DNA of 64,000 nt from Ostreococcus lucimarinus (taxonomy: Eukaryota), in NCBI GenBank assembly GCA_000092065.1, contig CP000585.1; one strand, given 5' to 3'. The position numbers were made by a program, and so were the translations under genes. Below, in pieces: positions 9,804 through 36,273 of the stretch (position 1 is its first letter; each line of letters opens with the position of its first letter). The notes beneath the pieces are model-generated. The model was given only the letters and a program-made list of their open reading frames with translations. It was not told the origin of the DNA and searched no databases.

Positions 9804-10019
9804 TAGCTCGCTTTAACACAACGCACCGTACGCGATACTCGCGCTCGACGGGCGCGAACGCCGCGCTCGGGGCAAACTGAAATCGCCACGTCACCGTCGC
9901 CGAAAAGGTCAATCGAAACGCGTCGTCCCGCACTTCTCGACCGCCTCGGTGCGCGCGCGCGACGCGCGCCCGACGACGCACGCCGCGCTTCGTAAACTCT
10001 CGCGTCTCGCGCGGTCGTC

Positions 10020-11708
10020 ATGACGGCGCCGAGCGTGAGCAACGGCACGACGCGTTCGCTGATTTGGTTTCGCAAAGCGCTGCGCGTCCACGATAATCCC
10101 GCTCTCGCCGCGGGCATCGCGCGCGCGAAGAGCGCGCAACCGGTGTTCGTGCTCGATCCGTGGTTCTGTAAGCCCTCGCGGGTGGGGGCGAATCGCATGC
10201 GGTTCTTGTTGCAATCGCTGCGCGACTTGGACGCGACGCTGCGAGAACGCGGCAGTTCGCTGCTGGTGCTGCACGGCGAACCGCGAGTGGTGTTGCCGCG
10301 AGCGTGCAAGACGTGGAAGGTTGATTTGGTGACGTGGGAACACGATATCGAACCGTATGCGAAAATGAGAGACACCGCGGTGCGAGGCGCGCTGGAGCGC
10401 GCGGGAGTAGAGTGCGCGTCGTCGAGCGGACACACGCTGTACGACGTGGAGGAGATGTTGGCGAAGTGTCATGGGAAACCACCGACGACGTATTCGCAGT
10501 TTTTGAAGATTGTAGATAAAATGGGTGCACCTGCGGCCGCTTTGGATGCGCCGAAGGCGATGCCGGCGCCGTTCACGGGGACAGCAGAGGAGACGAAGGA
10601 ATTAGTCGCGGGAGTGGCGGATGCGTACGGGATCCCCACTTTGGAGGAGCTCGGTTACGAAGCCATGCATGACGACGAAGGTTTTCAAGCGATCGGAGGT
10701 GAAACCGAAGGCTTGAGACGTCTACGCAGACAACTGTCGCGCACGGAATGGGTGCACACGTTTCAAAAGCCAGATACAAATCCCACGACGCTTTTTCATG
10801 CCTTGGGCGCGAAAAAGCCAAAGCCAAAGAGTCCGTTCGAAATCGCAGCGCGAGACGCGGGAAGCAAAAATGACGCAACAAACACTGCAGCGAATAGTGA
10901 TATGCTGATGACACCGTCCACGACAGCGCTGAGTCCGTACATGAAATTCGGTTGCGTGTCGCCGCGAGTGTTTTATCACGAGCTCAACGCCGTGCTCGCA
11001 AAGTTTGAGGGCAAAGGTCAACCTTCGCAACCGCCGGTGAGTCTCATGGGACAACTGATGTGGCGCGAATTCTACTATCTCGTCGGCGCGGGGACGCCGA
11101 ATTTCGATAAGATGGAAGGAAATCCAATCTGCAGGCAAATTCCTTGGAACAAGGATCGTGAGCTCTTCGCGGCTTGGGAGAACGCGCAAACCGGGTTCCC
11201 TTGGATCGACGCCGCGATGACCCAGCTTCGCCTCGAGGGATGGATCCATCACTTGGCTCGACACGCCGTGGCGTGCTTCCTGACCCGTGGTGATCTATTC
11301 GTGCACTGGGAGTGGGGCAGAGACACGTTCGATCGCGACCTCGTCGACGCCGATTGGGCGCTGAACAACGGCAACTGGATGTGGCTCTCGTGTTCGTGTT
11401 TCTTTTACCAATATTTCCGAGTGTACGGTCCGCACTCGTTCGCGAAAAAGTACGACAAGGACGGCGCGTACGTCAAGCACTACCTCCCCGTGCTGAAGAA
11501 TATGCCCGCCAAGTACGTGTACGAACCTTGGCTCGCCCCTCTCGACGTGCAGAAGAAAGCCGGTTGCGTCGTCGGCGTCGATTATCCCGCTCCGATCGTC
11601 GACCACGCCACGGCGAGCAAGGCGTGCATAGATAAGATCGCCACCGCTTACGCCGCTCACAAGGACGCCACCGCGGTGGCTGGGAAGAAGCGTAAAGCCG
11701 GCGAATAA
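10020..11708 (+). CDS. Cryptochrome/photolyase family: (6-4) photolyase or animal-type cryptochrome
   Basis: N-terminal LIWFRKALRVHDNPAL (photolyase alpha/beta domain). C-terminal WLSCSCFFYQYFRVYGPHSFAKKYDKDGAYVKHYLPVLKNMPAKYVYEPWLAP matches the FAD-binding-domain consensus of (6-4) photolyases (WLSCSSFFQQFF..YCP....DPNGDYIRRYLP.L...PAKYIYDPW.AP). Confidence 0.9.
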   Translation: MTAPSVSNGTTRSLIWFRKALRVHDNPALAAGIARAKSAQPVFVLDPWFCKPSRVGANRMRFLLQSLRDLDATLRERGSSLLVLHGEPRVVLPRACKTWKVDLVTWEHDIEPYAKMRDTAVRGALERAGVECASSSGHTLYDVEEMLAKCHGKPPTTYSQFLKIVDKMGAPAAALDAPKAMPAPFTGTAEETKELVAGVADAYGIPTLEELGYEAMHDDEGFQAIGGETEGLRRLRRQLSRTEWVHTFQKPDTNPTTLFHALGAKKPKPKSPFEIAARDAGSKNDATNTAANSDMLMTPSTTALSPYMKFGCVSPRVFYHELNAVLAKFEGKGQPSQPPVSLMGQLMWREFYYLVGAGTPNFDKMEGNPICRQIPWNKDRELFAAWENAQTGFPWIDAAMTQLRLEGWIHHLARHAVACFLTRGDLFVHWEWGRDTFDRDLVDADWALNNGNWMWLSCSCFFYQYFRVYGPHSFAKKYDKDGAYVKHYLPVLKNMPAKYVYEPWLAPLDVQKKAGCVVGVDYPAPIVDHATASKACIDKIATAYAAHKDATAVAGKKRKAGE

Positions 11709-11795
11709 ACTCGTTGATTCGTTAATTTAAAAAGCCTCTCGCGCGCGGCGTCCACCACACTGCACAGGCGCCTCACAACGCGACGCGCGTTCGTC

Positions 11796-13418
11796 ATGTC
11801 GCTCGAGCGCGAGCGCTTGCTCGATCGCGCGACGTCGAACGCGGCCGCGTCGTCGCGCGATGACAGACGAACGCGCGCTGTTCGTCTCATCGCCACCGCT
11901 TCGTGCGTCGGCGTCGCGACGTACGCGCTCGCGCGCGCCAGCGGGATGATGTTCGCACCGTCGCTCGGTAACACCCAACGCGATTCGCGCTTCGGCGCAT
12001 CGTCCATCGACGCTACCGAGCGAACGGTGCGAGAGTATAAGGACGAATTGTCAATCCTCTCGTGGTCGCACGATCGCGGATTCGAGACGCACAGAGGATC
12101 GTGGAGGCAGGAGGCGCGAAGCGCCGACGCGAACGAGACGCCGGACGCGCCGGCGAAGGACGAGCGCGACGTGTCGAATCGTCAACGAGGGGCGGCAACG
12201 CTGATGGCGCAAACGATCGCAAAGTACATGCCTGGTCGATTATCGGAGACGTCGGCGCCGTTCGAGTTGTTGTACTCGACGTGGGACATGCCGTCGACGC
12301 CGTGCTTGGACGCCGAGTACGCGCAGAAGTTGTGCGAGTTTGATCGATGGGTACCTATATTTAACTTTGGGAGCTCGTTCAAGGATCAAACCGTGCTGCC
12401 GACAATGGTGCCAGCCACGCTCGGCGCGCTTCGTAGTTGTTTCATCGAGGGTTTGAATCCGCATTTAGGCTTTAGCGCGGACGACGAGCCACAGTGCGAC
12501 TTTTTACGCTTCCCGACGACAAAGTATTCCGAGCAAGGAAAGTGCGACGCCAAGCTCGCTCAGTGTCGGTATCACGGATTGTTTTCGCTCAATGCCGTGG
12601 ATGATAAGTCGATGTACGAGTGGGATAATCTCAAACCGCAGGTGGAATGGCGCGGGAGCGACTATTCGTTTCTCGCGCCCCGGGTACCGGGGCACAAGCC
12701 TGACGCGAATGAGTTTTTGAGCGAAATCGCGTCTTCAGCCAATGTTTCGCAGGCCTTACACGATATGGCGTTTTCCACCGATATTGGACCACGTCTCAGG
12801 GCGGTACTGTTTTCAAAGTTGTACCCCGAGCTCATCGACGCCAAGTTTTTCAACTGGAAAAATCAGTCGAGCGCGCGCGACAAGATGGCCGCCGAACTCG
12901 GTATTGACGCCACGGAACGCTTAACTGAAGAGGCGCTGGGCAAATACAAGTATCATCTCGACCTCGGCGGTGGTGGAGGGACGACGTGGAGCGGACTGAT
13001 TCCCAAACTCACCATGCCGGGCGTGCTGTTGCACCACGAGACGTCGATGAAGGATTCGTACTTTGACACTCTGAAGCCGTGGGTGCACTACGTGCCCGTC
13101 GCAGAAGACCTACACGACGTTTTTGAGAAGATTTCTTGGTGCGAAACGCACCCCGAGGAAGCACGAAATATCAGCGCCAACGCCAACGACTGGGTTCGCG
13201 ACTTCCGAGGCTTGAAATCGCTGCTTCGTCACAACTATCAAGCCCTGGCGATTCCCTTGGCGAAAACGCTCGATCCCTCTGGCGAGACGCTGCTAGACTT
13301 TGAAGCCGCGCACGTGGCCGCGCGCGCCGAGCGCCTGGCCGCGCGCGCCGCAAAACTCGCCATCAAAGCGTCCAGAGACGCCGCCAAAGCCGCGAAGGCC
13401 ACCAACGTTTCCGATTAA
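11796..13418 (+). CDS. GT90-family glycosyltransferase (CAP10 domain; Rumi/POGLUT1 protein O-glucosyltransferase-like), type-II membrane topology
   Basis: KYKYHLDLGGGGGTTWSGLIPKLTMPGVLLHHETSMKDSYFDTLKPWVHYVPVAEDLHD aligns with Rumi/POGLUT1 [30 protein letters not shown]...LKPWVHYIPVKTDLSN, and WRGSDYSFL lies upstream. The N-terminal TM segment is CVGVATYALARA. Confidence 0.8.
   Translation: MSLERERLLDRATSNAAASSRDDRRTRAVRLIATASCVGVATYALARASGMMFAPSLGNTQRDSRFGASSIDATERTVREYKDELSILSWSHDRGFETHRGSWRQEARSADANETPDAPAKDERDVSNRQRGAATLMAQTIAKYMPGRLSETSAPFELLYSTWDMPSTPCLDAEYAQKLCEFDRWVPIFNFGSSFKDQTVLPTMVPATLGALRSCFIEGLNPHLGFSADDEPQCDFLRFPTTKYSEQGKCDAKLAQCRYHGLFSLNAVDDKSMYEWDNLKPQVEWRGSDYSFLAPRVPGHKPDANEFLSEIASSANVSQALHDMAFSTDIGPRLRAVLFSKLYPELIDAKFFNWKNQSSARDKMAAELGIDATERLTEEALGKYKYHLDLGGGGGTTWSGLIPKLTMPGVLLHHETSMKDSYFDTLKPWVHYVPVAEDLHDVFEKISWCETHPEEARNISANANDWVRDFRGLKSLLRHNYQALAIPLAKTLDPSGETLLDFEAAHVAARAERLAARAAKLAIKASRDAAKAAKATNVSD
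12824..13117 (+). repeat. 294-nt tract 100 % identical to 14570..14863 in the tandem paralog (gene-conversion tract); a second 39-nt identical tract sits at 13170..13208 = 14916..14954
   Basis: Direct comparison of the two gene sequences. Identity begins at ccccgagctcatcgacgccaag and ends at gaagacctacacga, with flanks diverged on both sides (e.g. gtacc vs gcacc just upstream). The two identical tracts are separated by ~50 nt of unrelated sequence. Confidence 0.85.
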
Positions 13419-13529
13419 CCCCCGTTCCGCGCTGTATCAACAGTATCAACACCATCCGTCCACCAGCCGCGCGACGCTCCGTTTTCAAGCCTCCGCCATC
13501 GATCGCTCGACGCGCCACACGCGCGCGCG

Positions 13530-15209
13530 ATGCTCGGTCGCGCGCGCGATGACGTCGCCGAGCGCGCGGCACTCCTCGACGTCCCCGACGCCCCGTCGTC
13601 GTCGCGCGTCGCCGACGTCGACGTCGACGTCGACCGACGCGCGCGCGCGGGACACCAACACCCAAGCGCTTCGCCCGTGTTTCGCTCGCGAGTGCTCGGG
13701 TTCGCGTGCGCGTTCATCCTCGTCGCGTGCGCGTCGCGCGTGGGAAACGTTCCCCTGAGACTGCGACCGCCGATCGAGAAGCGCACGGCGCGCACGGTGA
13801 AAGAGTACGGACACGAGGGGGAGTTGCACTTGCTGCGCTGGACGTCGGCGGGTGGATTCGAAGCCGTCGAGTTGGGTCAGTCGACGGATGGCGTCAAGCA
13901 GCGCGCGGTGGAGGCGGTGAAGGTGATGATTGAAACGATAAAGAGGTATTACCCGCATCGGCTCGAGGATGGGCGGAATCCGTTCGAGTTGCTTTTCGAA
14001 GTATCGGACAAGCCGTCGACGCATTGCGTGTCCGCGCAGGCGAAGTGCGCGACGAGAGCGTGGGCACCGATATATGCGTTCGGTAGCGTGCCGAAAAACG
14101 TCGAGCACGTGTTACCGACGATGATTCACGCGCCCTTGGTTCCGCTCGCGTCTTGTTACACTGAGAACATCGCGACGTACAACGTGTCCATGAGTGGGCT
14201 TGACGCTGAGACGACGTCGTGCCCGTTTCTGAATTACCCGACGAAAAAGTATAGCGAGTTGGCCAAGTGTGATCCGGACGGCGATGTGAGCGGACAAGCT
14301 GCGTGTACGCCATACGCCCACGGATTATTTTCGCTCGACGCCGTGGAGGACAAGTCGTTGTACGAATGGAACTCGTTGGTTAACAAAGTCTTTTGGAGAG
14401 GGAGCGATTACGCGTTCTTGACGCCGTCGTACCCGGATTTTGCCTCGACGTCCGAAAACTTTTTGCCATGGTTGATGGAAGAGGCGAACAAAATGAAAGC
14501 GATGAAGATGTTGTTGCGAAATAGTGACGTCGGTCCGCGCTTTAGGGCGGTTCTGATGTCGAAGTTGCACCCCGAGCTCATCGACGCCAAGTTTTTCAAC
14601 TGGAAAAATCAGTCGAGCGCGCGCGACAAGATGGCCGCCGAACTCGGTATTGACGCCACGGAACGCTTAACTGAAGAGGCGCTGGGCAAATACAAGTATC
14701 ATCTCGACCTCGGCGGTGGTGGAGGGACGACGTGGAGCGGACTGATTCCCAAACTCACCATGCCGGGCGTGCTGTTGCACCACGAGACGTCGATGAAGGA
14801 TTCGTACTTTGACACTCTGAAGCCGTGGGTGCACTACGTGCCCGTCGCAGAAGACCTACACGATCTTGCTGAACGCGTGCGATGGCTCGAAACCCATCCG
14901 ACCGCGGCGCAGCGCATCAGCGCCAACGCCAACGACTGGGTTCGCGACTTCCGACGCCTGCGATCGCTCTTGGCGTACAACTATCGCCTTCTCGCAGTTC
15001 CGCTGTCGCTCTCCCTCGACGCCAAGCCGTTACCGTTATTTGCACCCTCCGCGAGCGTCCAAGCGACGAAATCCGAAGCCGAAGCCATCGACGCTGACCT
15101 CGCGTCGCCGCAACATCGCGCCGCCGTCGCCGCCGCCGGCGCGTCTCGCCGCCGTCGCGCGTCGGCTCGCCCCGCGGCGCGCGACACCCCCCGCGCGCCG
15201 TCGCTCTAG
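13530..15209 (+). CDS. GT90-family glycosyltransferase, tandem paralog of 11796..13418
   Basis: Same domain order as the upstream gene: TM helix VLGFACAFILVACA, a conserved PFELL...DKPSTHC block, WRGSDYAFL, and a C-terminal block identical at nucleotide level to the upstream paralog (see the repeat feature). It ends in an A/R-rich tail. Confidence 0.8.
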   Translation: MLGRARDDVAERAALLDVPDAPSSSRVADVDVDVDRRARAGHQHPSASPVFRSRVLGFACAFILVACASRVGNVPLRLRPPIEKRTARTVKEYGHEGELHLLRWTSAGGFEAVELGQSTDGVKQRAVEAVKVMIETIKRYYPHRLEDGRNPFELLFEVSDKPSTHCVSAQAKCATRAWAPIYAFGSVPKNVEHVLPTMIHAPLVPLASCYTENIATYNVSMSGLDAETTSCPFLNYPTKKYSELAKCDPDGDVSGQAACTPYAHGLFSLDAVEDKSLYEWNSLVNKVFWRGSDYAFLTPSYPDFASTSENFLPWLMEEANKMKAMKMLLRNSDVGPRFRAVLMSKLHPELIDAKFFNWKNQSSARDKMAAELGIDATERLTEEALGKYKYHLDLGGGGGTTWSGLIPKLTMPGVLLHHETSMKDSYFDTLKPWVHYVPVAEDLHDLAERVRWLETHPTAAQRISANANDWVRDFRRLRSLLAYNYRLLAVPLSLSLDAKPLPLFAPSASVQATKSEAEAIDADLASPQHRAAVAAAGASRRRRASARPAARDTPRAPSL

Positions 15210-15422
15210 TCCTAGAACACCGTCCGTTAGTTTATCACGCACCACTTCGTTCATCGCGCGCGTCGCTTTCGCGCCCGCTCGCGGCCGTCTCCTTCTTCTC
15301 TCCTCTCCTCTCTTCGCGCGTCCGCGGCGGCTCGCGGTCCCGGTCCTTCTCAAGATGTCCCGCCCGATCGACGCCCACTTCGATCGGCATCGCGCGACGC
15401 GCGCGTGGACGTTGGACGCGCG

Positions 15423-16541
15423 ATGCGACGCCGCGCGCGCGAGTCGACGCGCGGTGCGTTCGCGTGCGTTCTGTTCGCGCTGCTCGCCGCGGTGTGCGCG
15501 CGCGCGAGCGATTACTACGCCGCGCTCGGCGTGTCGCGCGGCGCGGAGGAGTCCCAGATCAAGCGCGCGTACCGAAAGCTCGCGCTGAAGTACCACCCGG
15601 ATAAGAACCCGAACGACGAGCGCGCGAAGAAAAAGTTCACGGAAATCTCGCAGGCGTACGAGGTGCTGAGCGATAAGGAGAAGCGGTCGATATACGATCG
15701 GTACGGCGAGGACGGGGTGAAGCAACACGAACAGAGCGGCGGACGAGGCGGCGGCGGGGCGCAAGATATCTTTAGTCAGTTCTTCGGCGGCGGTGGACCG
15801 TTCGGAGGATTCGGGGGATTCGGAGGAGAACAGGAAGAACCGGAAACGCCGAAAGGGACGACGATTAAGGTTGATTTGGGGATGACGGTGAAGGAAATTT
15901 ATCTCGGGGCGACGGCGCCGGTGACGCGGGAAAAGTTGGTGACGAAGAGCGCGAGAGGGACGAGGAAGTGTAACTGCCGACAGAAGCTCGTGACGCGACA
16001 AGTCGGACCGGGGATGTATCAGCAGTACACCGAGCAAACGTGCGAGGATTGCCCGAACGTTAAATTGGTGCGCGAGCGCGCGGATCTAAAAGTCGAGGTC
16101 GATGCGGGCGCCCCCGTCGGGCACGAAATTCTATTTTTTGAAGAAGGCGACGCGATGATCGATGGCGACCCCGGAGATTTGCTCTTCGTCGTGCAAACTT
16201 TGGAGGATAAAGAGAACAGGATCACGCGCGTCGGTAAGAGCGATTTGCACATGACGTACGAAATTACCCTCGTCGAGGCGCTCAACGGATTTTCTAAAAT
16301 CTTCAAGCACTACGACGGCCACGACGTCGTCATCGCTCGAACCGGGGTGACGGTACCTTTCGACAAAATGACGCTCAAGGGCGAAGGCTTGCCGAAGCAC
16401 AATCAATTCAAAAAGTTCGGTGACATGTTCATCACGTTTCAAGTCCAGTTCCCGGCGTCGTTGGACCAGAAGCAACGCGACGTCGTCTCGAAGACGTTCG
16501 CCTCGTCGAAATTTGTCGAGGTCGGCAAAGTGGTCGTATAA
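15423..16541 (+). CDS. DnaJ/Hsp40 co-chaperone, ER-lumenal ERdj3/DNAJB11-like (signal peptide + J domain + G/F region + Cys-containing substrate-binding domain)
   Basis: The track start at 15405 is GTG; the ATG is at 15423. Predicted signal peptide [17 protein letters not shown], then [55 protein letters not shown] (J domain with HPD), GGFGGFGG, and a CxC...C...CxxC cluster. Confidence 0.85.
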
Positions 16542-18198: not shown

Positions 18199-20058
18199 TT
18201 ACGCGCAGGCGGATGAATCCGCCGTGACGGTGTCGAACGCGGCTTCGTCGTCTTGCGCAGCTAATCGTTCCAGCGCTTCGATCGCGCTCGTACCGAAACC
18301 TTTCGGTTCACGGCTGGAGACGGAATCAACCACGAAGTCAAGCGTCACGATAGCCACTGCCGGTGTCGGCAAGCGCTTCGCGAACGGAACGTAAACGTCG
18401 GCGTACGGCGCTCGATGCGCGGACTTGTTGGGAGCCATATCGACGACGACGACGACGGGAGAGTTCCTCGGGGACGAGGGCGACAATGAATCGCCGATGT
18501 CTTCGATTCGCGTCACCACGGCGCCATCGGCTCGAGCGAATTGCATGTTCATCTCGAGCTGATTCGAGTCGCGAAATTTGCCGAGATAGACGAAGTGCCA
18601 GGTCGAGAAAACTTTTGCGCCACCGTTCTCTCGCGCTCGTTTCGGTCCACCGAGATTTCCGCACGAGTCGCCTTGGATCTCGAACGCATCTTCATCCACG
18701 CAGCGTTGCTGTTCCAAACACGATTTCACCCACGCGCTGCTCAAGATCCAGCACCCTTGGATGAGCGCTTCGTAAAATTTGGCGCTCTTCTTTCGTAAAA
18801 CCATGCTTCCGGAATCAACCTTGCCTTTGCCGAAGACGACGTGCGTCGTTTGAGGCGAAAACATCGACTCATAGACGAAGTCAAACTGCTTGCAGAACTT
18901 TTCCAATTCCTTCTTTTCGGCGTCAGACAAGAGAGAGCCGCACACGCGAGTCTCGCGCGTCGTCTTGAGAAGTTCGTAGCTGGAATCCGAAGGATCGATG
19001 GAAACGAGCGACTTTTGACGCTTTGTCGCAGACTTGCCGTTCGTCGGCGCTTGTGCGCGCTTCAAACTGGGCGCTCTCGTAGCCGGTCGCTGCGCGGGCA
19101 GAAGCGCGAGAGGAAGAGTCGAGTGCGCCGGGCACGAAATTGAAAAGTGCTCGCCGTCGTACGTCGTTCCCTGAACCAGTCGCGCGCACCAAATATGATA
19201 CGATTTCTTGCATCTCGATTCGCTGCACCCCGACGGAGCACCCACTTTCTTGCAGTAGGCACACTTCAGACTTTTCGCTCTCCGGACCTCCGCGCAAACG
19301 TTCGTCAAGCCTCCGTCGACTGAGCTCACGACGAGCGGCGCCCAAAGCGCGCACGTCGTGTGACAGTGTTCCACGACCGTTTTCCTCGAAATCTTCTCCT
19401 CGAAACGTTCGACGCTTTCCCCAACCTCGCTCCCACGCTTGCAAAACGCGCACGGATGGCGACCCTGGACGGCAGCGTTCGGATCGATCACCGCTCCCGT
19501 CCACGGCGCGCGCGTCTCCCTCTCCACCGTCTCCTCCGTCGCCGTCGACGCTTCTTCTAATTCCCCCACCAACTCCTCAAACGCCCCGTTCCCACGTCGC
19601 CCACCTCCGTTTTCATCTCCAAACGCATGCGGTAGCGTTGGAAGCTTTCGCATGTTCGCCATGATCTCCTTCAACTGCGACACGCTCGTTCTTCGCTGCG
19701 GCGCTCGCGCGTTGTGCTTCCTCAGCTGCGTCGCCGGAATCTGTGACCCATACGGCACTTCCGTCTCCATCACCGACGCCACCGCCGCCAAAACGTTCGT
19801 ATACGCGCTCACAATCTTCTCAAACCGCTCATCCTTCCGCGACTCTCGCTTCGTGCACGGCGCTCTGCACGTCGGGCACGGCTGTTTCCTATCGAACAAC
19901 GTCTTCGCGCACGCCGCGCAAAAATAATGCGAGCACGCCAGCTTCGTCGGCTTTTTCGGCAGGCTCAGGCACACCGCGCAGCACAAGTGTTGTCCGAGCG
20001 CGTCCAGCGACGTCGTCAGCGTCGTTTTCGCCGTCTCCAGGCACGCGTCCAGCGTCAT
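18199..20058 (-). CDS. BRCA1/BARD1-like protein: N-terminal C3HC4 RING, extended PHD-like Cys/His module, C-terminal tandem BRCT
   Basis: RING: CCAVCLSLPKKPTKLACSHYFCAACAKTLFDRKQPCPTCRAPC. Middle: CAFCKRG...HTTCALWAP...CAYCKKVGAPSGC...CKKSYHIWCARL...SCPAHS (ePHD, as in plant BRCA1/BARD1). C-terminus: THVVFGKGKVDSGSMVLRKKSAKFYEALIQGCWILSSAWVKSC...WHFVYLGKF (BRCT repeats). Confidence 0.85.
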   Translation of the reverse strand: MTLDACLETAKTTLTTSLDALGQHLCCAVCLSLPKKPTKLACSHYFCAACAKTLFDRKQPCPTCRAPCTKRESRKDERFEKIVSAYTNVLAAVASVMETEVPYGSQIPATQLRKHNARAPQRRTSVSQLKEIMANMRKLPTLPHAFGDENGGGRRGNGAFEELVGELEEASTATEETVERETRAPWTGAVIDPNAAVQGRHPCAFCKRGSEVGESVERFEEKISRKTVVEHCHTTCALWAPLVVSSVDGGLTNVCAEVRRAKSLKCAYCKKVGAPSGCSESRCKKSYHIWCARLVQGTTYDGEHFSISCPAHSTLPLALLPAQRPATRAPSLKRAQAPTNGKSATKRQKSLVSIDPSDSSYELLKTTRETRVCGSLLSDAEKKELEKFCKQFDFVYESMFSPQTTHVVFGKGKVDSGSMVLRKKSAKFYEALIQGCWILSSAWVKSCLEQQRCVDEDAFEIQGDSCGNLGGPKRARENGGAKVFSTWHFVYLGKFRDSNQLEMNMQFARADGAVVTRIEDIGDSLSPSSPRNSPVVVVVDMAPNKSAHRAPYADVYVPFAKRLPTPAVAIVTLDFVVDSVSSREPKGFGTSAIEALERLAAQDDEAAFDTVTADSSACA

Positions 20059-20334
20059 CCTTCGGTGCCTCGTTTGAATTCAATCGAATGCAATCCACCA
20101 CCGTTTCCTCGTTTCCGCCTCGTTTCCGCGTCGCGTCGCGTCGCGTCGCGCGCGCGCGTCGACGGCGTCGCGTCGCGTCGCGCGCGCGTCTCGTCGTCCG
20201 TCCTCGCGCGCCGTCGCGCGTCGCGCTCTCCCGTCGCGCGCGCCGCCGTCTGTCGCGTCCGAGAGCGTCTTCTCGGACGCGCCGATCGATCGATCGGATC
20301 GATCGATCGATCGAATGATCGGCACTCGGCGACG

Positions 20335-20919
20335 ATGATGATGATGGTGAGGACGACGACGACGAGGACGACGACGACGACGACGACGCGCGCGAACGCG
20401 CGCGCGACGAAGCGACGAACGACGCGCGTCGCGACGCGCGCGCGCGCGAACGGCGAACGAGGAACGTCGGCGTCGGCGGCGTCGACGTCGCGGGACGACG
20501 GGCGTAACCGTATCGGGGAAATCGTCGCGACGACGGCGAGCGCTTTGGCGCTCGCGATGGGCGCGCCGGACGCGCGGGCGATCGACATGCAAATAGTGGA
20601 TTCGACGACGTCCGAGTACATGCGACGACGGGACGAGGCGGCGAGTTTTAAGTGCTCGGGCGGGATGTTCGATTGCGATTCGGATAGACGAGAGTACGCG
20701 CGCGCGCAGACGGAGCGCCTGCGAGCGAGAATCGCGACGAGGGATCCGGAGATGGACGCCGAGGAGGTTTCGCCGTGCACGGTGGAGGATCCGTGCACGG
20801 ATAACGTGCTGCAGGCGGCGTTGGCGGGGGTGCAAGGCTTGACGACGAGCGAAAAATTGGAAAAGATGGGACGACCGACGGACGCGGTGAATTCGTCGAG
20901 TCAGTATTTCGGTTTTTGA
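20335..20919 (+). CDS. Hypothetical small protein (T/R-rich N-terminus, two Cys pairs)
   Basis: An ATG at 20335 (ATGATGATGATG) sits in an ORF divergent from BRCA1-like. The C-terminal 90 aa have diverse composition (FKCSGGMFDCDSDRREYARAQTERLRARIATRDPEMDAEEVSPCTVEDPCTDNVLQAALAG). The N-terminus is encoded by a (GAC)n microsatellite. No recognised domain. Confidence 0.35.
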   Translation: MMMMVRTTTTRTTTTTTTRANARATKRRTTRVATRARANGERGTSASAASTSRDDGRNRIGEIVATTASALALAMGAPDARAIDMQIVDSTTSEYMRRRDEAASFKCSGGMFDCDSDRREYARAQTERLRARIATRDPEMDAEEVSPCTVEDPCTDNVLQAALAGVQGLTTSEKLEKMGRPTDAVNSSSQYFGF

Positions 20920-20956: not shown

Positions 20957-23203
20957 CTATGCTTCTATTAGGTGCGTGGCTTCGTCGACCGCGCTGTCTT
21001 CCTCGCGCAGCTCGCCCCAAGACGTGCCGACGGCGAGTTTGATTGGCGTCGGCACGGCGAGTTTGATCGCGTTCTCCATGACGTTCTTCACCGCTCGCGC
21101 GCACTCTGGGACGTAGTCTTCGTCGACTTCGAACAAAAGTTCGTCGTGGATCTGTGCGACGAGAGTGACGCGCTTTTTATTCACTGATCCCGGCGCGACG
21201 TCGTTTGCAAATCTTCCCGCGCCGACGGCGCTCGTCCATCGCAGCATCGCCGTCTTCATCATGTCCGCGGCTGTTCCTTGAATGATCGTATTCACAGCTT
21301 GCCTTTGCGCCTCGCTGCGTTCGCTGAAGACTTTGGAGTGGATTTTCGGCAACGCGCGATGTCGACCGGACATCGGAAGCGTCACCGCTCCGGTTTGTTC
21401 CGCGCGTTGCAACACGCGAGTTATCCATTGATTCACCTTTGGAAACGCTCGATGAAACGCGGCGATGTATCCCTGCGCCTCGCTCTTCGGTACGCCGAGT
21501 TTTTCGGCCAAACCCGTGGCGTGTTGGCCGTACACGATTCCGTACGCCGTGCGCTTGGCGATGTCACGCGTGCTCTTTTCCGCTGGCGCGTCGAGCGGTA
21601 AGCCTTTACCGGCGTTCCAAATCGCCACGAACACGTCGCCTTTCGCCTGTCGTAACAGCGATATGAGGCGATCATCGCCGCTCAAGTGTGCCAAAACTCG
21701 CAGTTCAATTTGACTGTAATCCGCCGCGATGAATGTGCGCCCGGTGGGTGCGACGAAGCAGTTTCGCATCGTTCCCCGACCTACTTGCTGAATGTTAGGA
21801 TGACTCGAGGACAATCTCCCGGTCGCCGTCTTTGTGTTGTTCCATTGCGTGTGAATTCTGGCGCGACCGTCGGCGGCGATGACGGCTGATTTGTCGTAAT
21901 TGTCGCACATCGCTCTTTCTTTCAACGCGCCTCGATGATTCAACACGATTTGTGCGAAATGATGATGCTTCACTAGCGACTGCAGGACTTCGACACTCGT
22001 CGATAAATGGCTCGACTTGGAACCTTTCATCGCGTGCGCGCTCGGCGTCGGTAGCTTGAGCTTGTTATACAAGACGTCGGCGACTTGCTGCGCGCTCGCC
22101 AAATTGATGTCGACTCCGATGCACTTTTGGGCCTCGCGCTCAAGCTCTTCGACGCGACGATTCGCGGCCCGTCTCTGCTCGTCCGCGCGCGTCCGATCGA
22201 ACCCAACACCGTGGTGTTGAAGCACGCCGAGAGCGACTGCGACTTTGGCTTCGACGTCTCGCGCGAGCGGGGCGTCGCCTCGAGGGACGAACGAAAGCGC
22301 CGCGGTCAAGTCGGATTGAAAACACCCGAGCGCGTCGCTCCATGATGCATCTTTACACGCGCCCGTGTCCGCGATGCCCCCATCGTAGGCGCGATCGGGA
22401 TTGGCCAACCACGCGTCGATGCGACAATCGACGACGCGCGTCGTCGACGCGTCCACGCCAGTCACGCCCGCGTCCATCGCCGCGTGAACGATGTCTTGCG
22501 CGTGATACGTCACAACTCGACACTTCGCAAAAATCTTTTCTAAACGCGCTCTCGTCGTCGCGCGGTTCGCGGCGCGCAAAAAAAACGCCTCTCCCGTCGA
22601 CGCCATCACCGCGCCGAAACCGAGCACCGCTCGATCGACGGCGGACGCGTCGTCGTCGTCGCCATCGTCAGCATCACCACCGACCGCCGAAAGAGTCGCG
22701 AAGCGTTTCGCCGCCTTTTTCGCCGCCTTCTTTTCGTTCGCATCGACGTCACGAAAATTCGAACTGTACCCGAACCAAATCTCCAAGTCTCCCGCCACGC
22801 GCGCGACGTCTCTTCGCAGCACGCCGAGCGCGCACGTCGCGTCCTCGCCGCCATCCTCCAACGCTCGATCGAACGCCTCTCCGCTGTGGTCCGCATCGCA
22901 CCACGCCGCATTTTTCTCGAAATCAATCCCCTCCATCGCGTCTCCTCGTCCGGTCTCGAACGCCAACGCCATCGCCTCCGCCTCCGCGCTCGGTTTCGCC
23001 TTCGCCTTCGCCTTCGCCTTCGCCTTCGCGCGTCGCTTCTCGCCGCCGCCGCGCGTCGTCGTCGTCGTCGTCGTCGCCGGGCGTTTCCGCGTCGCCGACG
23101 CGTCGGCGTCGACGAACACCGGCGCGACGGTCGTCGTCGTCGTCGTTTCCGTCGCGTCGCCGGGCGGCGGTTTGGTTTTCCATCGCCATCGAAACGTCGC
23201 CAT
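20957..23203 (-). CDS. Family-A (Pol I-like) DNA polymerase; stand-alone polymerase domain with a degenerate exonuclease-like N-terminal region and no helicase or 5'-nuclease domain
   Basis: Motif A DYSQIELRVLAHLSGDD, motif B RDIAKRTAYGIVYGQHATGLAEKLG, motif C VAQIHDELLFEV, O-helix region. 748 aa with an N-terminal (AK)n/T-rich low-complexity stretch. Its length and architecture resemble Pol nu/Pol theta-polymerase-domain or organellar POP-type enzymes; I cannot discriminate without alignment. Confidence 0.9.
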   Translation of the reverse strand: MATFRWRWKTKPPPGDATETTTTTTVAPVFVDADASATRKRPATTTTTTTRGGGEKRRAKAKAKAKAKAKPSAEAEAMALAFETGRGDAMEGIDFEKNAAWCDADHSGEAFDRALEDGGEDATCALGVLRRDVARVAGDLEIWFGYSSNFRDVDANEKKAAKKAAKRFATLSAVGGDADDGDDDDASAVDRAVLGFGAVMASTGEAFFLRAANRATTRARLEKIFAKCRVVTYHAQDIVHAAMDAGVTGVDASTTRVVDCRIDAWLANPDRAYDGGIADTGACKDASWSDALGCFQSDLTAALSFVPRGDAPLARDVEAKVAVALGVLQHHGVGFDRTRADEQRRAANRRVEELEREAQKCIGVDINLASAQQVADVLYNKLKLPTPSAHAMKGSKSSHLSTSVEVLQSLVKHHHFAQIVLNHRGALKERAMCDNYDKSAVIAADGRARIHTQWNNTKTATGRLSSSHPNIQQVGRGTMRNCFVAPTGRTFIAADYSQIELRVLAHLSGDDRLISLLRQAKGDVFVAIWNAGKGLPLDAPAEKSTRDIAKRTAYGIVYGQHATGLAEKLGVPKSEAQGYIAAFHRAFPKVNQWITRVLQRAEQTGAVTLPMSGRHRALPKIHSKVFSERSEAQRQAVNTIIQGTAADMMKTAMLRWTSAVGAGRFANDVAPGSVNKKRVTLVAQIHDELLFEVDEDYVPECARAVKNVMENAIKLAVPTPIKLAVGTSWGELREEDSAVDEATHLIEA
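22995..23030 (-). repeat. (GGCGAA)n / (TTCGCC)6 in-frame hexanucleotide repeat encoding (AK)n in the polymerase N-terminus
   Basis: ttcgccttcgccttcgccttcgccttcgccttcgcg, seen directly; encodes AKAKAKAKAKAK on the minus strand. Confidence 0.8.
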
Positions 23204-23467
23204 CGCGCGCCGTCGCGTCGCGCGCGCCGCTCGCGCGTCGCGACGCCGCGAGAACTACGCGCGATGCGCCTCGCGCGCGCGCGTGACGGCGTCGGCGCGC
23301 GATGGCGTCGCGTCGCGTCGTCGCATCGTCGTCGCGAAGTGCGGTGACGCGCGCGTCACATCGAAGCGACGCGCGCGTTCGCCGCGCGACGCTTCGACGG
23401 ACGCGACGGACGCGCGCGCGCGCGTCTTCAGCGCGCGCGTCGTCGTCGCGTGCGCGATCGCGATCGC

Positions 23468-24539
23468 GATGGCGTCCGGACGCGCCGGGACGCCGGCGGC
23501 GACGCTCGGGACGCTGCGCGCGCACGACGCGAAGCGCGCGCTCGCGGTGGATCGGTTGATCCTGGGGGCGTCGCCGCTGGCGGGAATATACCGCGGCGTC
23601 GACGCGAGCGAGGCCGCGGCGACGGTGCGCGCGGCGCTCGACGTCGGGTTCACGCGGTTCGACACGGCGCCGCACTACGGGTTGGGGCTGAGCGAGACGC
23701 GCCTGGGCGAGGCGCTGCGAACGCACGCGAAGAAGGCGGTGAAGGTGTACACCAAGGTGGGAAGGGTGATGAAACCGATGGATGAAGTGACGGAAAGCGA
23801 ACGCGAGTCGGTGGTCGAGTGGGGGAACGTGCCGGGAAACGACGGGTGCATATTTCCAGACGCCCCGCGAGACGTGTTGCCCGTGCTCGATTATTCCGCG
23901 AATGGGTTCGTGCGATCGCACGCCGATAGTTTAAACAGGCTTGGGATTGATAGAATAGAGGGATTGAGGATTCACGACGCCGAGACGCCCGAAAGGTTCG
24001 AGGCGGCGACGACCGGGGGCGGCGTGCGCGCGTTGACGGCGCTTCGCGACGCGGGAACCATTTCAGAGGTATCGCTCGGGATGAACGACGCCTCGTACGT
24101 GTTGCGAATGATTCGCGAGAATCCCCCAGGAACGTTCGACTCGGTCATGATGGCCGGTTCGTGGAACTTGCTCGATCAAGACGGTCTCGAAGTCTTGCTC
24201 GAGTGCCAAGCGCGAAACATCAAGGTGCACAACGCCGGCGTCTTCGCCAGCGGCGTCCTCGTCGGCGGTTCGCACTACAAGTACGGCCCCGCTCCCGACG
24301 AGATCAAGCGGCGCACCGAAAAGTGGAACGTCTTGGCGCGCGCGTACGACATCCCTCTCCCCGCCATCGCCCTCGCCTTCGCCCTCACTCCCGAAGTCGT
24401 CGACTCGTGCGCCGTCGGCGTCAAGTCCCCCGACGAGGTCGCCCAATCCGTCGCCTGGCTCGCCGACGCCGCCCGCGTCCCGCGCCAGCTTTGGCTCGAC
24501 GCGTTTTCTCAAGGTTTACTCGCGTGGATCCCGTCCTAG
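23468..24539 (+). CDS. Aldo-keto reductase (L-galactose/L-fucose dehydrogenase-like AKR)
   Basis: ILGASPLAGIYRGVDASEAAATVRAALDVGFTRFDTAPHYGLGLSETRLGEALR is the AKR N-terminal (alpha/beta)8 signature, closely similar to plant L-galactose dehydrogenase (GASPLGSVFG...FFDTSPYYGGTLSEKMLGKGLK). The track ORF at 23172 extends upstream into the antisense of the polymerase start with no additional ATG, so 23468 is taken as the start. Confidence 0.85.
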
Positions 24540-31302: not shown

Positions 31303-32610
31303 TTACTCGGAAGGGGCTTCGATCGGCGCTTGGTCGACGGCGGGCTTCGTTTCGTTGACGAGATTTTCGGCGCCGTCGACGATCTTCATGGAGATGATCT
31401 CGTCGTCGACCTTGAGATCGCGCAGGAGCTCTTGGTTCTCGACGACGTAACCGAAGATGGAGTAGCGACCGTCCAAAATGTTGGTGCCGGACGGCGTGAG
31501 TTCGGATTCGCGAAGGAGGAAGAAGAACTGGGACGACGCCGAGTTCGGTTCCGCTTCGCGACGCGCCATCGCGAGCGTACCGAACGCGTTGAACGGCAGC
31601 ACCGGCTGGTCGCGGTAACGGCCGAGTTCCTCCAGCGTCAACTCGTATTCCGGCACCTTGTCGCCTTGCACCATGATTTCCAGAGGAACCGTGCGCTCGA
31701 CGCCGCCAAGCTTGAAACCGTCACCGCCCTTCGGCTTACCGCTTTGTACGACGAAACCATCGGAGCGCTGGATCGGCATCTTGTCGTAAAAACCCAAGTT
31801 GATCAAATCGGCAAAGTTACCCGCGCTCACCGGGGCGTTGTAACCGTCGAGGACGATCTTCAACACGCCGCCATCCGTGTTCGCGTTGTCCTTGATTTTC
31901 ACCAGCATGTCCACCGTCGCCCGACCCTTCAACAACGGCCTGTCCGCGTATTGCGCGGGGACGTCAAATGGGAAACCATCAATCATATCTTCCTCGATGC
32001 GACCGACGAGCGAGAGCGCCTCTTGTTGCTGCAACGGCACCTCTTGCTTGTCCTTTTGAGCGACGATGACTTGGAAATCCGTCAACACACTCTCGAGCTC
32101 TTTCAATGCCTGCTCACCGTCCGCCTTCTTCCCCGACGCGAGAGCCTCAACGATCTTACCGCGTTGCTCCTTGACAATCTTCAAAGAGCCGTTCACGCTC
32201 GATTCGACGCCGGAGAATTTCACTCCCGGCACGCGCAAGTCGTCGCTGATGCTCTCGAGCTTCTTCTGAATGGCGCGAATCGGCTTATTGCTCACCGGCA
32301 ACGCGTTTCGCAACAGCGCCTTGGCGTTCGTGATGGGATTCGCTTCCAATCCAGCGACTTGGCCGATCTCCATCGGCGTCACCGGCGACGCGAACGCTTC
32401 CAGAGTCGGCGCGGAGACGCACGCCGTCGCGGCGATCGCCATCAAACTCTTCGCGATCGATTTCGCCGCGCTCGGGGCGTCTTCGCCCGCAGCGTGCGCG
32501 CGCACGACGGTCAACGCGCTTTGCTTGCGCGTGTTGACTGTTTTCGCGCGCAAAGCGCGCGCTGGGCGCGCGCACGCGCGTCCGATGGTGGGTGACGTCG
32601 ACCCCGGCAT
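31303..32610 (-). CDS. Thylakoid-lumen peptidyl-prolyl isomerase CYP38/TLP40-like (N-terminal helical domain + cyclophilin domain) with plastid transit peptide
   Basis: A green-type S/T/R/A-rich transit peptide. The C-terminal cyclophilin-like block is LKIVLDGYNAPVSAGNFADLINLGFYDKMPIQRSDGFVVQSGKPKG...FGTLAMARREAEPNSASSQFFFLL...LDGRYSIFGYVVEN. Overall length and N-terminal helical region are as in CYP38. Confidence 0.85.
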   Translation of the reverse strand: MPGSTSPTIGRACARPARALRAKTVNTRKQSALTVVRAHAAGEDAPSAAKSIAKSLMAIAATACVSAPTLEAFASPVTPMEIGQVAGLEANPITNAKALLRNALPVSNKPIRAIQKKLESISDDLRVPGVKFSGVESSVNGSLKIVKEQRGKIVEALASGKKADGEQALKELESVLTDFQVIVAQKDKQEVPLQQQEALSLVGRIEEDMIDGFPFDVPAQYADRPLLKGRATVDMLVKIKDNANTDGGVLKIVLDGYNAPVSAGNFADLINLGFYDKMPIQRSDGFVVQSGKPKGGDGFKLGGVERTVPLEIMVQGDKVPEYELTLEELGRYRDQPVLPFNAFGTLAMARREAEPNSASSQFFFLLRESELTPSGTNILDGRYSIFGYVVENQELLRDLKVDDEIISMKIVDGAENLVNETKPAVDQAPIEAPSE

Positions 32611-33466
32611 TTTGGATAAAGTCGTCCTTTACGAGCGTCCACCAACGCGCTGAGTCGCACGAACGCGCTCGGGCGCGACGAAAAGCGCGTCGAAGCGAGT
32701 TTCCGTCTTCGGAGTCGTGCTGCGACGAGCGCGCGCGAATGTGCGGTCGCCCCGCGCGCGCGCCGCGGTTTTCGCAAACTATCGGCTACTCTAACGCTAC
32801 AAACTCTAGACGCGCGCGTCGTCACCTGCGCCCGGCGGGCTCGCGATACGCCCTATTCGCGCGATACAACGCGTAGATTTCATCCCCTCCGATCGACGCG
32901 TCCGTCGGGCGGCTGCCCAGTCCCGCGCGCGCGGGTCCGTCTGTCTCGCGCGCGTTCGCCGTCGGCGCCGCGCGCGTCGGCGCCGCCGCCGTCCCCGCCC
33001 GACCGCGTTCCGACGCCCGCGCGCGCTCATCGTGCTCCAACATCGATTTCGCCGACGCCGAGGCGTCGTATCCGCGCACGTCGCGATCGAACCGCTCGAG
33101 TCGACGCTCGACGTACGCTCGCGGCGGTTCCCGCGCCGCCCTCGTCGTCGTCGCCTCCACCGCGCGGTACAGCCCCGCGACGCCCGCGTTCGCGCGTCGC
33201 GCGCGCATCGCGAGCGTCCCGACCGCCGTTCCCGTCCCGCGCGTCTCGCGCGTCGTCGCGCGCGCGTCGAGATCGATCTCGTTCGCGTCGCCCGCGCCCG
33301 AGTCTCGCGCGTCGTCCCGCGCGCGCGCCCCGAGCGCCGCCGCGATGCGCTCGGCGCGCCTGCGCGCCTCCTCCACCATCGCGCTCGCGGGCGCGGGCTC
33401 CATCGCGCGCGGCGCGTCGCCGCGTCGCCGCGTCGTCGGCGCGCTGTGTCGACGCCGTGTCATTTC

Positions 33467-34198
33467 ATGTCGCGCGCGTCGCGGCTCGTCTCGCTCGCCC
33501 CGCGCGCTCGCGTCGCGCGCCGACGCGCGACGCGCGCGATGGCGGGACCGCCGACGCCCGCGCGACCGCTCGGGCGCGTCGCGCGCGGCGCGGCGACGGC
33601 GAGGGTGAAGATCGACGCGTGGTTGGACTTTGCGTGCCCGTTTTCGGGACGGTTTTGGAGAAACTGCACGGCGGCGTGGGCGAGTTACGACGGGAAAGCG
33701 GACGTCGCGATCGTCGTGTACAATCAACCGCAACCGTGGCACGCGCAGAGCGCGCTGGCGCACGAGGTGTCGTTGGGGGTGGAACGACTGCGCGGCGAGG
33801 ACGCGTTCGTCGCGTTTTGCGAGGCGGCGTTTAGCGAGAAAAACTGGGACAAGTTCACGGATAAGTTCACGGAAAAGATGACCAAGGGGGAGATGTACGA
33901 TTTGTACGTCGACGTCGCGCGCGAGGCGATGACGGGCGCGATGGGCGCGGACGCCGCGGCGTCGACGGCGGGCGAAGTGCGAAAACTTTTGGAATTGGAC
34001 GCCGAGGCGTTGGCGCGCGGGGAGAAGAATCCGGGCAACGCGATGACGCAGCAGTTGAAGTTTTACGTCAAACTCGGACGGCAAACGGGCGTGCACGTGT
34101 CGCCGAGCGCGTACGTGAACGGACTGTTCGCGGATACCTCGAGCGGGTGGAGCGAGAGCGAGTGGCACGCGTTTTTCGACGCCGCGCGTGGCAAGTGA
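33467..34198 (+). CDS. DsbA-like thioredoxin-fold protein (CxxS active-site variant)
   Basis: RVKIDAWLDFACPFSGRFW... is a DSBA-family N-terminal CPxS motif within a beta-alpha fold; C-terminal VHVSPSAYVNGL resembles the cis-Pro region. The start is uncertain (ATG 33467 or ~33540). The track ORF start 33032 lies in the antisense of an A/R-rich region. Confidence 0.65.
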   Translation: MSRASRLVSLAPRARVARRRATRAMAGPPTPARPLGRVARGAATARVKIDAWLDFACPFSGRFWRNCTAAWASYDGKADVAIVVYNQPQPWHAQSALAHEVSLGVERLRGEDAFVAFCEAAFSEKNWDKFTDKFTEKMTKGEMYDLYVDVAREAMTGAMGADAAASTAGEVRKLLELDAEALARGEKNPGNAMTQQLKFYVKLGRQTGVHVSPSAYVNGLFADTSSGWSESEWHAFFDAARGK

Positions 34199-34281
34199 GC
34201 GCAGCGATCATCGCGCCGCAGCTTCTCGTCAGTCTTAGCGAATGCCTTTTAAACTCTAATTACAGACAAAGCGAGATAACA

Positions 34282-35024: not shown

Positions 35025-35214
35025 TCTTTCGTTCGCCGTCGCCGCGCGTCGCCGTCCACCGTCGCGTCGCGCGCGCGCGTCGCGCCGCGGGCGCCGCGCG
35101 CGCGCGCGCGCGCGCGCCCGTCCGCGCCCGCATCGCCCCGTCTCGCGTTCGCGCGCGCGTGTGCGGCGCGCCCGCGCGGCGCCGCGTCACATCGAGTCGC
35201 GCCGTCGTCGATCG

Positions 35215-36240: not shown

Positions 36241-36273
36241 CGAACGATTCAATTTCTAAAATTCTTCACAAAA

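Follow-up and report, generated by a model that had tools for sequence, protein, structure and literature searches.

DNA polymerase theta (Pol theta) in its full-length form (POLQ) has an N-terminal superfamily 2 (SF2) helicase-like domain, which is fused through a central region to a family-A polymerase domain. In trypanosomatids the helicase and the polymerase of Pol theta are two separate genes (PMC12578213), and Takata et al. (2017; PMC5472330) noted a split annotation of POLQ in some lineages and stated of Ostreococcus that it "contains POLQ". The related Pol nu (POLN), found only in some metazoan groups, was described in the same study by intact motifs, three POLN-specific inserts and an O-helix of the form (K/R)xxY, where Pol I has (A/T)xxF. 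Organellar family-A polymerases of the POP type keep an active 3'-5' exonuclease with motifs Exo I-III (PMC4166229). Here we describe a polymerase gene on the minus strand (20957-23203) of a 64-kb stretch of Ostreococcus lucimarinus DNA, which was analyzed as a whole and is called the window below. A preliminary description, which did not state the strand, had reported a stand-alone family-A polymerase of 748 amino acids (aa) here and had left it between a Pol nu/theta-like and an organellar enzyme. The listing of open reading frames (ORFs) confirmed the frame from ATG to stop; of the two readings the theta/nu-like one stood, on the strength of trees, profiles, shared derived residues and the fold of the N-terminal domain, whilst that of an organellar POP did not. 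The protein probably represents, in the Mamiellophyceae, the Pol theta/nu (Mus308-type) branch of eukaryotic family-A polymerases, in a form without helicase, encoded by a native, intronless nuclear gene.

The window is gene-dense nuclear DNA typical of O. lucimarinus (about 61% GC), and the coding sequence (CDS) of the polymerase, with a GC content of 0.608 and a third-codon-position value (GC3) of 0.71, was like its neighboring genes in both respects. A product of the gene is deposited as XP_001417901.1 / ABO96194.1 ("predicted protein [Ostreococcus lucimarinus CCE9901]", 671 aa), a member of the protein's 90%-identity cluster, and the O. tauri orthologue is XP_003079129.2 ("DNA polymerase A", 743 aa), or OUS48177.1 in another assembly. 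The gene is thus already public, but without finer classification than these two labels. It belongs to a conserved family, with 54–74% identity over about 15 related algal protein clusters (members of 743–829 aa) and 35–43% identity to more distant members of 680–990 aa; these relatives come from marine metagenomes and genome-scale contigs. Synteny is kept in one relative (loci L005 and L006), where a divergent aldo-keto reductase gene, the polymerase, a small ORF and a RING-PHD-BRCT gene follow one another, with the same divergent aldo-keto reductase/polymerase layout and a spacer of 196 bp. Given this conservation of family and synteny, the ORF is far beyond chance.

A Pfam scan of the 748-aa protein returned a single significant domain, DNA_pol_A (aa 340–731, E = 5e-104), and no 5'-nuclease (PF02739, PF01367), no PF01612 exonuclease and no helicase, in line with the preliminary description, which had noted the lack of a 5'-nuclease and a helicase. 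The Pol nu pseudo-exonuclease model gave a sub-threshold match (E = 0.17), and the NCBIfam models of bacterial Pol I matched over the polymerase domain only, far under their cut-offs. In the AlphaFold2 model, which was built from an 89-sequence alignment (mean predicted local distance difference test [pLDDT] 87, predicted template modeling score [pTM] 0.86), aa 1–63 were disordered, aa ~71–312 formed a compact alpha/beta domain and aa 313–735 formed the polymerase.

Phylogenetic analysis grouped the family with Pol theta and Pol nu. Reference sequences were taken from PDB chain alignments and from the NEXUS alignment deposited with Harada et al. (2020; PMC7238167). Neighbor-joining (NJ) trees were built over 402–403 columns with 200 bootstraps each and under three gamma rate corrections; the bacterial set consisted of Klenow and of 30 Pol I sequences that were the family's own best matches. 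The family joined theta/nu at 99–100% bootstrap under all three corrections, and no replicate joined it to bacteria or to POP. When a polymerase from Volvox africanus (see below) was added, family and Volvox grouped together at 96–97%, and family, theta and nu at 100%.

Profile comparisons gave the same direction. A hidden Markov model (HMM) of six theta/nu sequences outscored bacterial HMMs of 6 or 31 sequences for all 11 family members, by 5 to 64 bits. Among the controls, left-out theta members favored theta/nu and Pol nu tied against the larger bacterial HMM, whilst bacteria favored bacterial profiles by 100–270 bits and POPs favored them too. We then searched 5.8 billion proteins with a profile of the family's polymerase domain: the first match from outside the family was an 832-aa Volvox africanus protein (341 bits), every bacterial Pol I scored 329 bits or less, and vertebrate POLN (310–319 bits) was interleaved with the best bacteria. 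A whole-chain fold search of the PDB did not discriminate, as Pol nu, Bst Pol I and Pol theta were nearly tied, and a PDB sequence search repeated at E values up to 10 returned nothing further.

The family also shares residues with theta/nu at columns where bacteria differ. The Phe of the family's GDVF signature stands where Pol theta/nu have F or Y and where all 31 bacterial Pol I compared have the His of DIH. Other states shared with theta/nu are the W of xWNxT..TGRLS, where bacteria have F or Y, and SWGxL at the C-terminus, where bacteria have NWxEA; the rigid bacterial loop IPVRxExGxxIR is missing in the family. In all, six signature columns were of theta/nu type, as against four at which the family keeps the bacterial-type, ancestral state. 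As to the theta/nu-specific inserts that the preliminary description had suggested looking for, length varies at the sites of Pol theta inserts 2 and 3, Pol theta insert 1 is absent, and so is insert 2 of POLN. At the insert-2 site the Ostreococcus-type members are shorter than Pol I and the P0012–15 subgroup of distant members is longer by roughly 10–20 residues; the insert-3 site is expanded by about 12 to 30 residues, varying by family member. In agreement with the theta/nu placement, although indirectly, the EukProt survey of Harada et al. (2024; PMC10877234), which included the proteomes of O. lucimarinus and O. tauri, set Pol theta-allied sequences aside and reported no Mamiellophyceae-specific type.

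Several results weigh against the placement. Raw similarity cannot separate theta/nu from bacterial Pol I: against the polymerase domain the best bacterial match scored 235 bits, Pol nu 224, Arabidopsis TEBICHI 215, Klenow 209, human Pol theta 194 and stramenopile Pol theta 168–175. The trees are distance-based NJ trees with 6–9 theta/nu taxa and no maximum likelihood counterpart, and long-branch attraction may have contributed to them, because the family and theta/nu both form long branches. Monophyly of theta/nu without the family received 0–44% bootstrap, so that whether the family lies inside or beside theta/nu is unsettled in the trees, and the family does not group with Arabidopsis TEBICHI. 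For some members the theta/nu HMM outscored the 31-sequence bacterial HMM by only 5–9 bits. The classical Pol theta inserts 1 and 2 are absent from the Ostreococcus protein in the alignment, and the family's N-terminal-domain HMM gave no significant match to the exonuclease-like regions of Arabidopsis and Ectocarpus Pol theta.

Some of these points would suit descent from a bacterial Pol I by lateral or endosymbiotic transfer, as for rgPolA, chloroPolA and pyramiPolA, with the 5'-nuclease lost, the exonuclease inactivated and the theta/nu grouping a long-branch artefact, to which NJ is prone. In single-sequence searches the top raw scores outside the family did belong to bacterial Pol I (225–235 bits, 35–38% identity), and the Ostreococcus members are without large Pol theta inserts. 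However, because the best bacterial matches score as high as theta/nu and several of them also carry the O-helix Tyr, raw bit scores and this Tyr were both rejected as discriminators. The remaining evidence makes a bacterial origin improbable. The bootstrap support with theta/nu was obtained against a bacterial set made of the family's own best matches; the POP branches are long too, yet the family is not drawn to them; and the profile test came out opposite to that of the bacterial controls. The DIH His has given way to Phe as in theta/nu, the IPVRxExG loop is absent, and a green-algal theta-type polymerase stands above all bacteria under the family profile. The fold of the N-terminal domain is nearest to the pseudo-exonuclease domain of Pol nu, and base composition and GC3 are native. 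Nesting in bacteria, the DIH and IPxRxExG motifs and a 5'-nuclease were all absent from the family, in a comparison that did not extend to chloroPolA and pyramiPolA sequences; the bacterial matches, unlike the window protein, carry the 5'-nuclease domains PF02739/PF01367.

The nearest relative outside the family, VaNZ11_009293 of Volvox africanus (P0245), supports a theta-type ancestry. Its gene lies at 10001–15495 of locus L010 (BSDZ01000024.1) and encodes the 832-aa protein in at least 12 coding segments. As in the family, DNA_pol_A is its sole Pfam domain and an exonuclease-like N-terminal region is present, with NAK..DPCVLAWM; the WNQT..TGRLSS and RWGEL motifs are shared as well. Long insertions occupy the insert-2 and insert-3 sites of the Volvox protein, whose gene has many introns, whereas the Ostreococcus gene is intronless and has a deletion at the insert-2 site. 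Judged by its long inserts 2 and 3, NAK..DPCVLAWM and RWGEL, the Volvox sequence reads as plainly theta-type, and it is probably the counterpart of Chlamydomonas POLQ/POLQ1 (Cre16.g664300). Neither a helicase Pfam annotation nor a tblastn signal for the C-terminal region of the TEBICHI helicase was found at the Volvox locus within 10 kb upstream. It may therefore be that the chlorophycean Pol theta polymerase likewise comes without an encoded helicase; alternatively, the Volvox gene model may be incomplete.

We assessed the N-terminal half of the protein for an exonuclease. Exonuclease motifs were mapped by AlphaFold2 strand order and by MAFFT alignment to bacterial domains with canonical DxE, NxKYD and YxxxD, without residue-level superposition; the mapping relies on these two sources because local hhalign comparison of the N-domain profile with active bacterial exonuclease domains was insignificant (probability <1%). 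The family pattern at Exo I is FG(F/Y)(S/R)SN, with F144, G145, S148 and N149 as invariant columns. At Exo II the family form is YHAQD(I/V)V, and its shifted Asp is arranged as in FNAKDFV of Pol nu, whilst at Exo III both the Tyr and the Asp are lost. The preliminary description had already noted the lack of clear acidic residues at Exo I-III, and this holds by the mapping, which rests on a predicted structure. Further along the domain, DCRIDAWLANPD resembles DPRIAAWLIDP of Pol nu, DTRVAAWM of Ectocarpus Pol theta and DPCVLAWM of Volvox, where bacterial Pol I has D(T/S)M(L/I)xxYLL. The protein thus presents a DnaQ-fold exonuclease-like domain without the catalytic DEDD residues, as expected of the Pol theta/nu clade, and in fold comparison this domain was nearest to the Pol nu pseudo-exonuclease domain. 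With its catalytic carboxylates replaced in the mapping, the domain is predicted to be proofreading-dead.

In sequence the N-terminal domain is conserved within the family and essentially unique to it. A phmmer search with it against 1.84 billion representative proteins gave nine matches, all of them family members or fragments; when a profile of the domain was run against the 5.8-billion-protein collection, low-complexity words dominated the result and known family members were missed.

The residues ahead of this domain bear on an organellar role. The first 70 are rich in R, K, T and A and predicted to be disordered, which is loosely compatible with algal transit peptides, and green algae do carry extra family-A polymerases, namely chloroPolA (tentatively mitochondrial) and pyramiPolA (localization unresolved) (PMC10877234). 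On this basis the protein could be imported by means of its tail and serve an organelle in replication or repair, whether as a divergent POP or as some other plastid or mitochondrial family-A polymerase. The tail itself, in which the preliminary description had correctly pointed out an (AK)6 and T-rich tract, has FRWRW at aa 4–8, T-runs at aa 20–25 and 44–50, RKRP at aa 39–42 and KRR(AK)6 at aa 56–70, with (AK)6 at aa 59–70. Orthologues repeat RWR(F/Y) at their very N-terminal end and, immediately ahead of a conserved KPS..AEA..ALAFE..GRG segment, a cluster of K/R residues. Such conserved elements look like functional motifs or a nuclear localization signal rather than a poorly conserved presequence, and the basic cluster is a possible nuclear localization signal.

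The comparison with the POPs makes an organellar enzyme very unlikely. O. tauri has a separate, bona fide POP, CAL55440.1, which is included in the alignment of Harada et al. (2020); it is likewise a nuclear-encoded family-A polymerase but a distinct gene, with the motifs ADYGQLELR, KVLNFSIAYG and QIHDEVILEG; it scored 74 bits and the Auxenochlorella POP 80, as against 167–224 for Pol theta/nu. POPs fell outside the clade of family and theta/nu, favored the bacterial profiles that the family does not, and carry POP-specific long insertions, unlike the window protein. Their Exo I-III motifs are active (PMC4166229), whereas these residues are lost in the window protein according to the mapping. 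The EukProt survey, by reporting no Mamiellophyceae-specific organellar type, argues indirectly in the same sense (PMC10877234). We excluded the organellar POP alternative because of the separate O. tauri POP, the low scores, the POP-type motifs and the active exonuclease of POPs.

Two further observations concern the N-terminal region. A PCNA-interacting (PIP) box reading of the N-terminal helix was ruled out, because the model places aa 73–81 with confidence (pLDDT about 91) in a helix that belongs to the folded domain. Separately, the distant family members P0012 (loci L008 and L009), P0013, P0014, P0015 and P0230 are extended at the N-terminus by about 150–250 residues, in which two short motifs are conserved, TLRYVVP and KDPNQVTLSQAFGG. 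The second fits QxxLxxAF and recalls a degenerate PIP box, a resemblance that we offer as an idea only.

The start of the gene differs between public models (671 aa at NCBI, 659 aa in metagenome gene calls, 748 aa in the ORF), as might be expected if the model were truncated and unrecognized upstream exons encoded a helicase or an active exonuclease, the true product being a full-length POLQ or a POP. This can be regarded as next to negligible. An in-frame TAG lies 17 codons 5' of the ATG, and only 265 bp separate the ATG from that of the divergent aldo-keto reductase gene; there is therefore no space for upstream coding exons. Many relatives have the same compact layout and a similar protein length (743–829 aa). 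The 20 large ORFs scanned in the window contained no helicase Pfam domain, and a tblastn search of its 64 kb with the C-terminal part of the TEBICHI helicase from Arabidopsis found nothing. Because there is neither upstream exon space nor a helicase signal in the window, the missing helicase and active exonuclease are properties of the gene and not of a truncated model. The outcome that the preliminary description would have taken as contrary, a place within the organellar POPs with an exonuclease on an unrecognized upstream exon, therefore failed on both sides: there was no POP grouping and there is no room for the exon. The protein also does not have the fused SF2 helicase-like domain and central region of full-length POLQ.

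As to the start itself, the model XP_001417901.1 is identical to aa 78–748 of the ORF, that is, it begins at Met78. The 77 codons left out (22973–23203, minus strand) are in frame and encode motifs conserved in orthologues, namely RWR(F/Y), the basic cluster and KPS..AEA, and the 743-aa O. tauri model includes the region equivalent to O. lucimarinus aa 1–77. Since the 77 residues are in frame and carry features that recur in orthologues, the 748-aa ORF is the likely product. To judge from these sequence features, the O. lucimarinus start is probably under-annotated, with the true start 77 codons upstream of that of the NCBI model.

Human Pol nu (POLN; PDB 4xvi and others) was the top solved-structure match to the window protein by sequence, by whole-chain fold and by N-domain fold, and the window protein has a POLN-type RxxY O-helix. 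Thomy et al. (PMC8002553) give the name DNA polymerase theta to another O. tauri protein, OUS43494.1; the orthologue of the window gene is OUS48177.1. Taken together these facts could mean that the Mamiellophyceae have two theta-clade polymerases, a full-length POLQ (OUS43494.1) and, as a Pol nu-like paralogue and a green analogue of animal POLN, the helicase-less enzyme. Were this so, the family would represent a Pol nu-like, stand-alone enzyme that evolved within the green lineage and had an origin separate from that of animal POLN. We consider it unlikely. Set against the features that define POLN, the window protein has intact motifs and a (K/R)xxY match (K-RTAY), but not all three inserts, and it comes from outside the metazoans. 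The 21 residues of POLN insert 2 after NIQ (HPIQITTPKNFKGKEDKILTI) have no counterpart in it and are gapped in the alignment. The (K/R)xxY pattern does not discriminate, because its first position is T or A in several orthologues and because Arabidopsis TEBICHI, with the same KR..Y pattern as the window protein, also has R there. In the trees the family was sister to the Volvox theta-type polymerase (96–97%), and a clade of family and POLN received 0% bootstrap. We conclude that the protein is not a POLN orthologue, because insert 2 is absent, the Arg of RxxY is not conserved and no tree replicate joined it to POLN. The best label is helicase-less Pol theta-clade polymerase, which is neither a POLN orthologue nor a full-length POLQ.

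OUS43494.1, which was assigned by gene-family membership, could equally be helicase-only, as Chlamydomonas POLQ2 is (PMC8604939); the literature, including the supplements of Takata et al. (2017) and Harada et al. (2024), yielded no architecture for Ostreococcus POLQ or OUS43494.1. The best human BLAST match of POLQ2 is POLQ (285) as against HELQ (246). A helicase-only partner gene is plausible, because POLQ2 is helicase-only and the Volvox polymerase has no helicase signal within 10 kb upstream. In a less radical variant, Pol theta might be split into polymerase and helicase genes across the chlorophytes (Mamiellophyceae and Volvocales), in which case a whole group of algae, genetically tractable species among them, would carry out end joining with polymerase and helicase untethered from each other.

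The polymerase domain itself appears fully equipped for catalysis. Motifs A, B and C, which the preliminary description had called canonical, were located at aa 495–510, 546–559 and 684–693 (Table 1). D495, R546, K550, H686 and D687 were among the residues invariant across the protein and its 88 homologues, and E688 was nearly so. Going by the roles established for Klenow and Taq, Asp495 is the metal-binding residue and Glu500 the equivalent of the steric gate, Klenow E710. Y554 sits at the position of Klenow F762. The loop at the insert-3 site is larger in P0012 and smaller in O. tauri.

Table 1. Coordinates in the window of the polymerase gene, its domains and motifs, and its upstream spacer.
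Feature	Position	Strand	Basis
Complete single-exon CDS, 748 aa + stop; probable helicase-less Pol theta/nu-clade family-A DNA polymerase	20957..23203	-	ORF listing
N-terminal tail, aa 1–70, predicted disordered	22994..23203	-	pLDDT <50 for aa 1–63
Predicted pseudo-exonuclease domain (inactivated 3'-5' exonuclease-like), DnaQ/DEDD fold, aa 71–312	22268..22993	-	
Degenerate Exo I, FGYSSN, aa 144–149 (Asp to Gly, Glu to Ser)	22757..22774	-	Placed by AlphaFold2 strand order (beta-1 of the exonuclease fold)
Degenerate Exo II, YHAQDIV, aa 233–239 (Asn to His, catalytic Asp to Ile/Val)	22487..22507	-	Alignment to bacterial NxKYD; phmmer alignment to Pol nu
Conserved exonuclease-like block DCRIDAWLANPD, aa 259–270	22394..22429	-	Family alignment and comparisons
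Family-A polymerase domain (thumb, palm, fingers), aa 313–735, catalytic motifs intact	20999..22267	-	Pfam DNA_pol_A, E 5e-104; AlphaFold2 pLDDT mostly >90
Motif A DYSQIELRVLAHLSGD, aa 495–510, Asp495 and Glu500	21674..21721	-	Alignment, string location
Clade signature GDVF, aa 522–525	21629..21640	-	Signature-column analysis and alignment
Motif B / O-helix RDIAKRTAYGIVYG, aa 546–559, containing KRTAYGIVYG; R546, K550, Y554, Y558; RxxY pattern	21527..21568	-	Alignment
Extra loop GRFANDVAPGSVNKKRVT, aa 663–680, about 12–13 residues beyond Klenow, at Pol theta insert 3 position, just before the motif C strand	21164..21217	-	Alignment
Motif C QIHDELLFEV, aa 684–693, catalytic H686, D687, E688	21125..21154	-	Alignment
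Divergent intergenic region, 265 bp, between polymerase ATG (23203) and aldo-keto reductase ATG (23469, +)	23204..23468	.	Sequence read; Aldo_ket_red Pfam match; holds in-frame TAG

Because the catalytic motifs are intact, proofreading is predicted to be lost and a Tyr occupies the Klenow F762 position, we predict a low-fidelity repair or bypass polymerase. It would be a nuclear, proofreading-deficient repair enzyme, which might extend 3' ends in polymerase-theta-mediated (microhomology) end joining and/or act in lesion bypass; low fidelity and poor discrimination against dideoxynucleotides would be expected. It could act alone or in trans with a separately encoded POLQ-like helicase, for which there are precedents in trypanosomatids, where Pol theta is split, and in Chlamydomonas, where POLQ2 is helicase-only. 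In Chlamydomonas, POLQ mutants are zeocin-sensitive and have lost most random transgene integration and single-strand templated repair (PMC8495919; PMC8604939), and in O. tauri the integration of foreign DNA resembles end joining (PMC8002553). By analogy with these two cases, a role in nuclear theta-mediated end joining, with or without lesion bypass, seems most likely.

Several neighboring genes were noted. Directly downstream on the same strand (18199–20058, minus) lies a gene for a 619-aa protein with RING finger, PHD-like zf-HC5HC2H and BRCT domains, a combination that suggests a DNA-damage-response E3 ligase; its counterpart also adjoins the polymerase orthologue in loci L005 and L006. 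A 330-aa ORF without a Pfam match (19927–20919, plus) is convergent with the polymerase gene, leaving 37 nt between the two stop codons, and also overlaps the RING-BRCT ORF at the latter's 5' end. Its real product is probably shorter, starting from an internal Met, because the equivalent gene of L005 encodes 185 aa. About 9 kb from the polymerase gene is a photolyase/cryptochrome family gene (10020–11708, plus; DNA_photolyase and FAD_binding_7), followed by tandem paralogues at 11796–13418 and 13530–15209 (both plus), each with a glycosyltransferase family 90 domain. The G+C content of 32001–38000 and 1–2000 is 0.68–0.69, as against about 0.55–0.65 in the rest of the window; gene models in these two regions are uncertain, because ORFs overlap there on both strands.

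The assignment of the gene to the Pol theta/nu repair-polymerase clade tidies its annotation. A compact (748 aa), intronless, helicase-free theta-type polymerase in organisms open to transformation and gene targeting would also be a natural system for asking what the polymerase half of Pol theta does without a tethered helicase, and whether this enzyme drives the end-joining-like random integration of foreign DNA in O. tauri.

Compared with known systems, the enzyme probably works much like Pol nu, by analogy of layout, as a stand-alone polymerase with a dead exonuclease. With full-length Pol theta (human POLQ, Arabidopsis TEBICHI) it shares the clade of its polymerase domain, the signature residues and an inactive exonuclease-like domain, and differs in having no SF2 helicase-like domain, no long central linker, no inserts 1 and 2 and a very short insert 3. 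Its architecture is that of the split or helicase-less Pol theta of protists, of which the trypanosomatid proteins were compared by description only. The Pol theta rows of the PMC7238167 alignment include three that as deposited are without the helicase part, from Ectocarpus siliculosus (CBJ29252.1), Thalassiosira pseudonana (XP_002291263.1) and Dictyostelium purpureum (XP_003288762.1); on these sequences, helicase-less theta-type polymerases, or else truncated gene models, are widespread in protist annotations. Stramenopile Pol theta and the family share NxQQ(V/M) after TGRLS and thumb motifs of the FNLASPxQVADVLF type, although the protist proteins score lower against the window protein (167–175 bits) and are not its sister group; their lack of a helicase may be of independent origin, or else their gene models may be incomplete. 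With Ostreococcus POLQ, split POLQ and the helicase-less cases of trypanosomatids and other protists already known, the remark in the preliminary description that a short Pol nu-like enzyme would be unusual in the green lineage was overstated. The O. lucimarinus gene overturns nothing and extends a known pattern of split or helicase-less Pol theta, seen in trypanosomatids and other protists.

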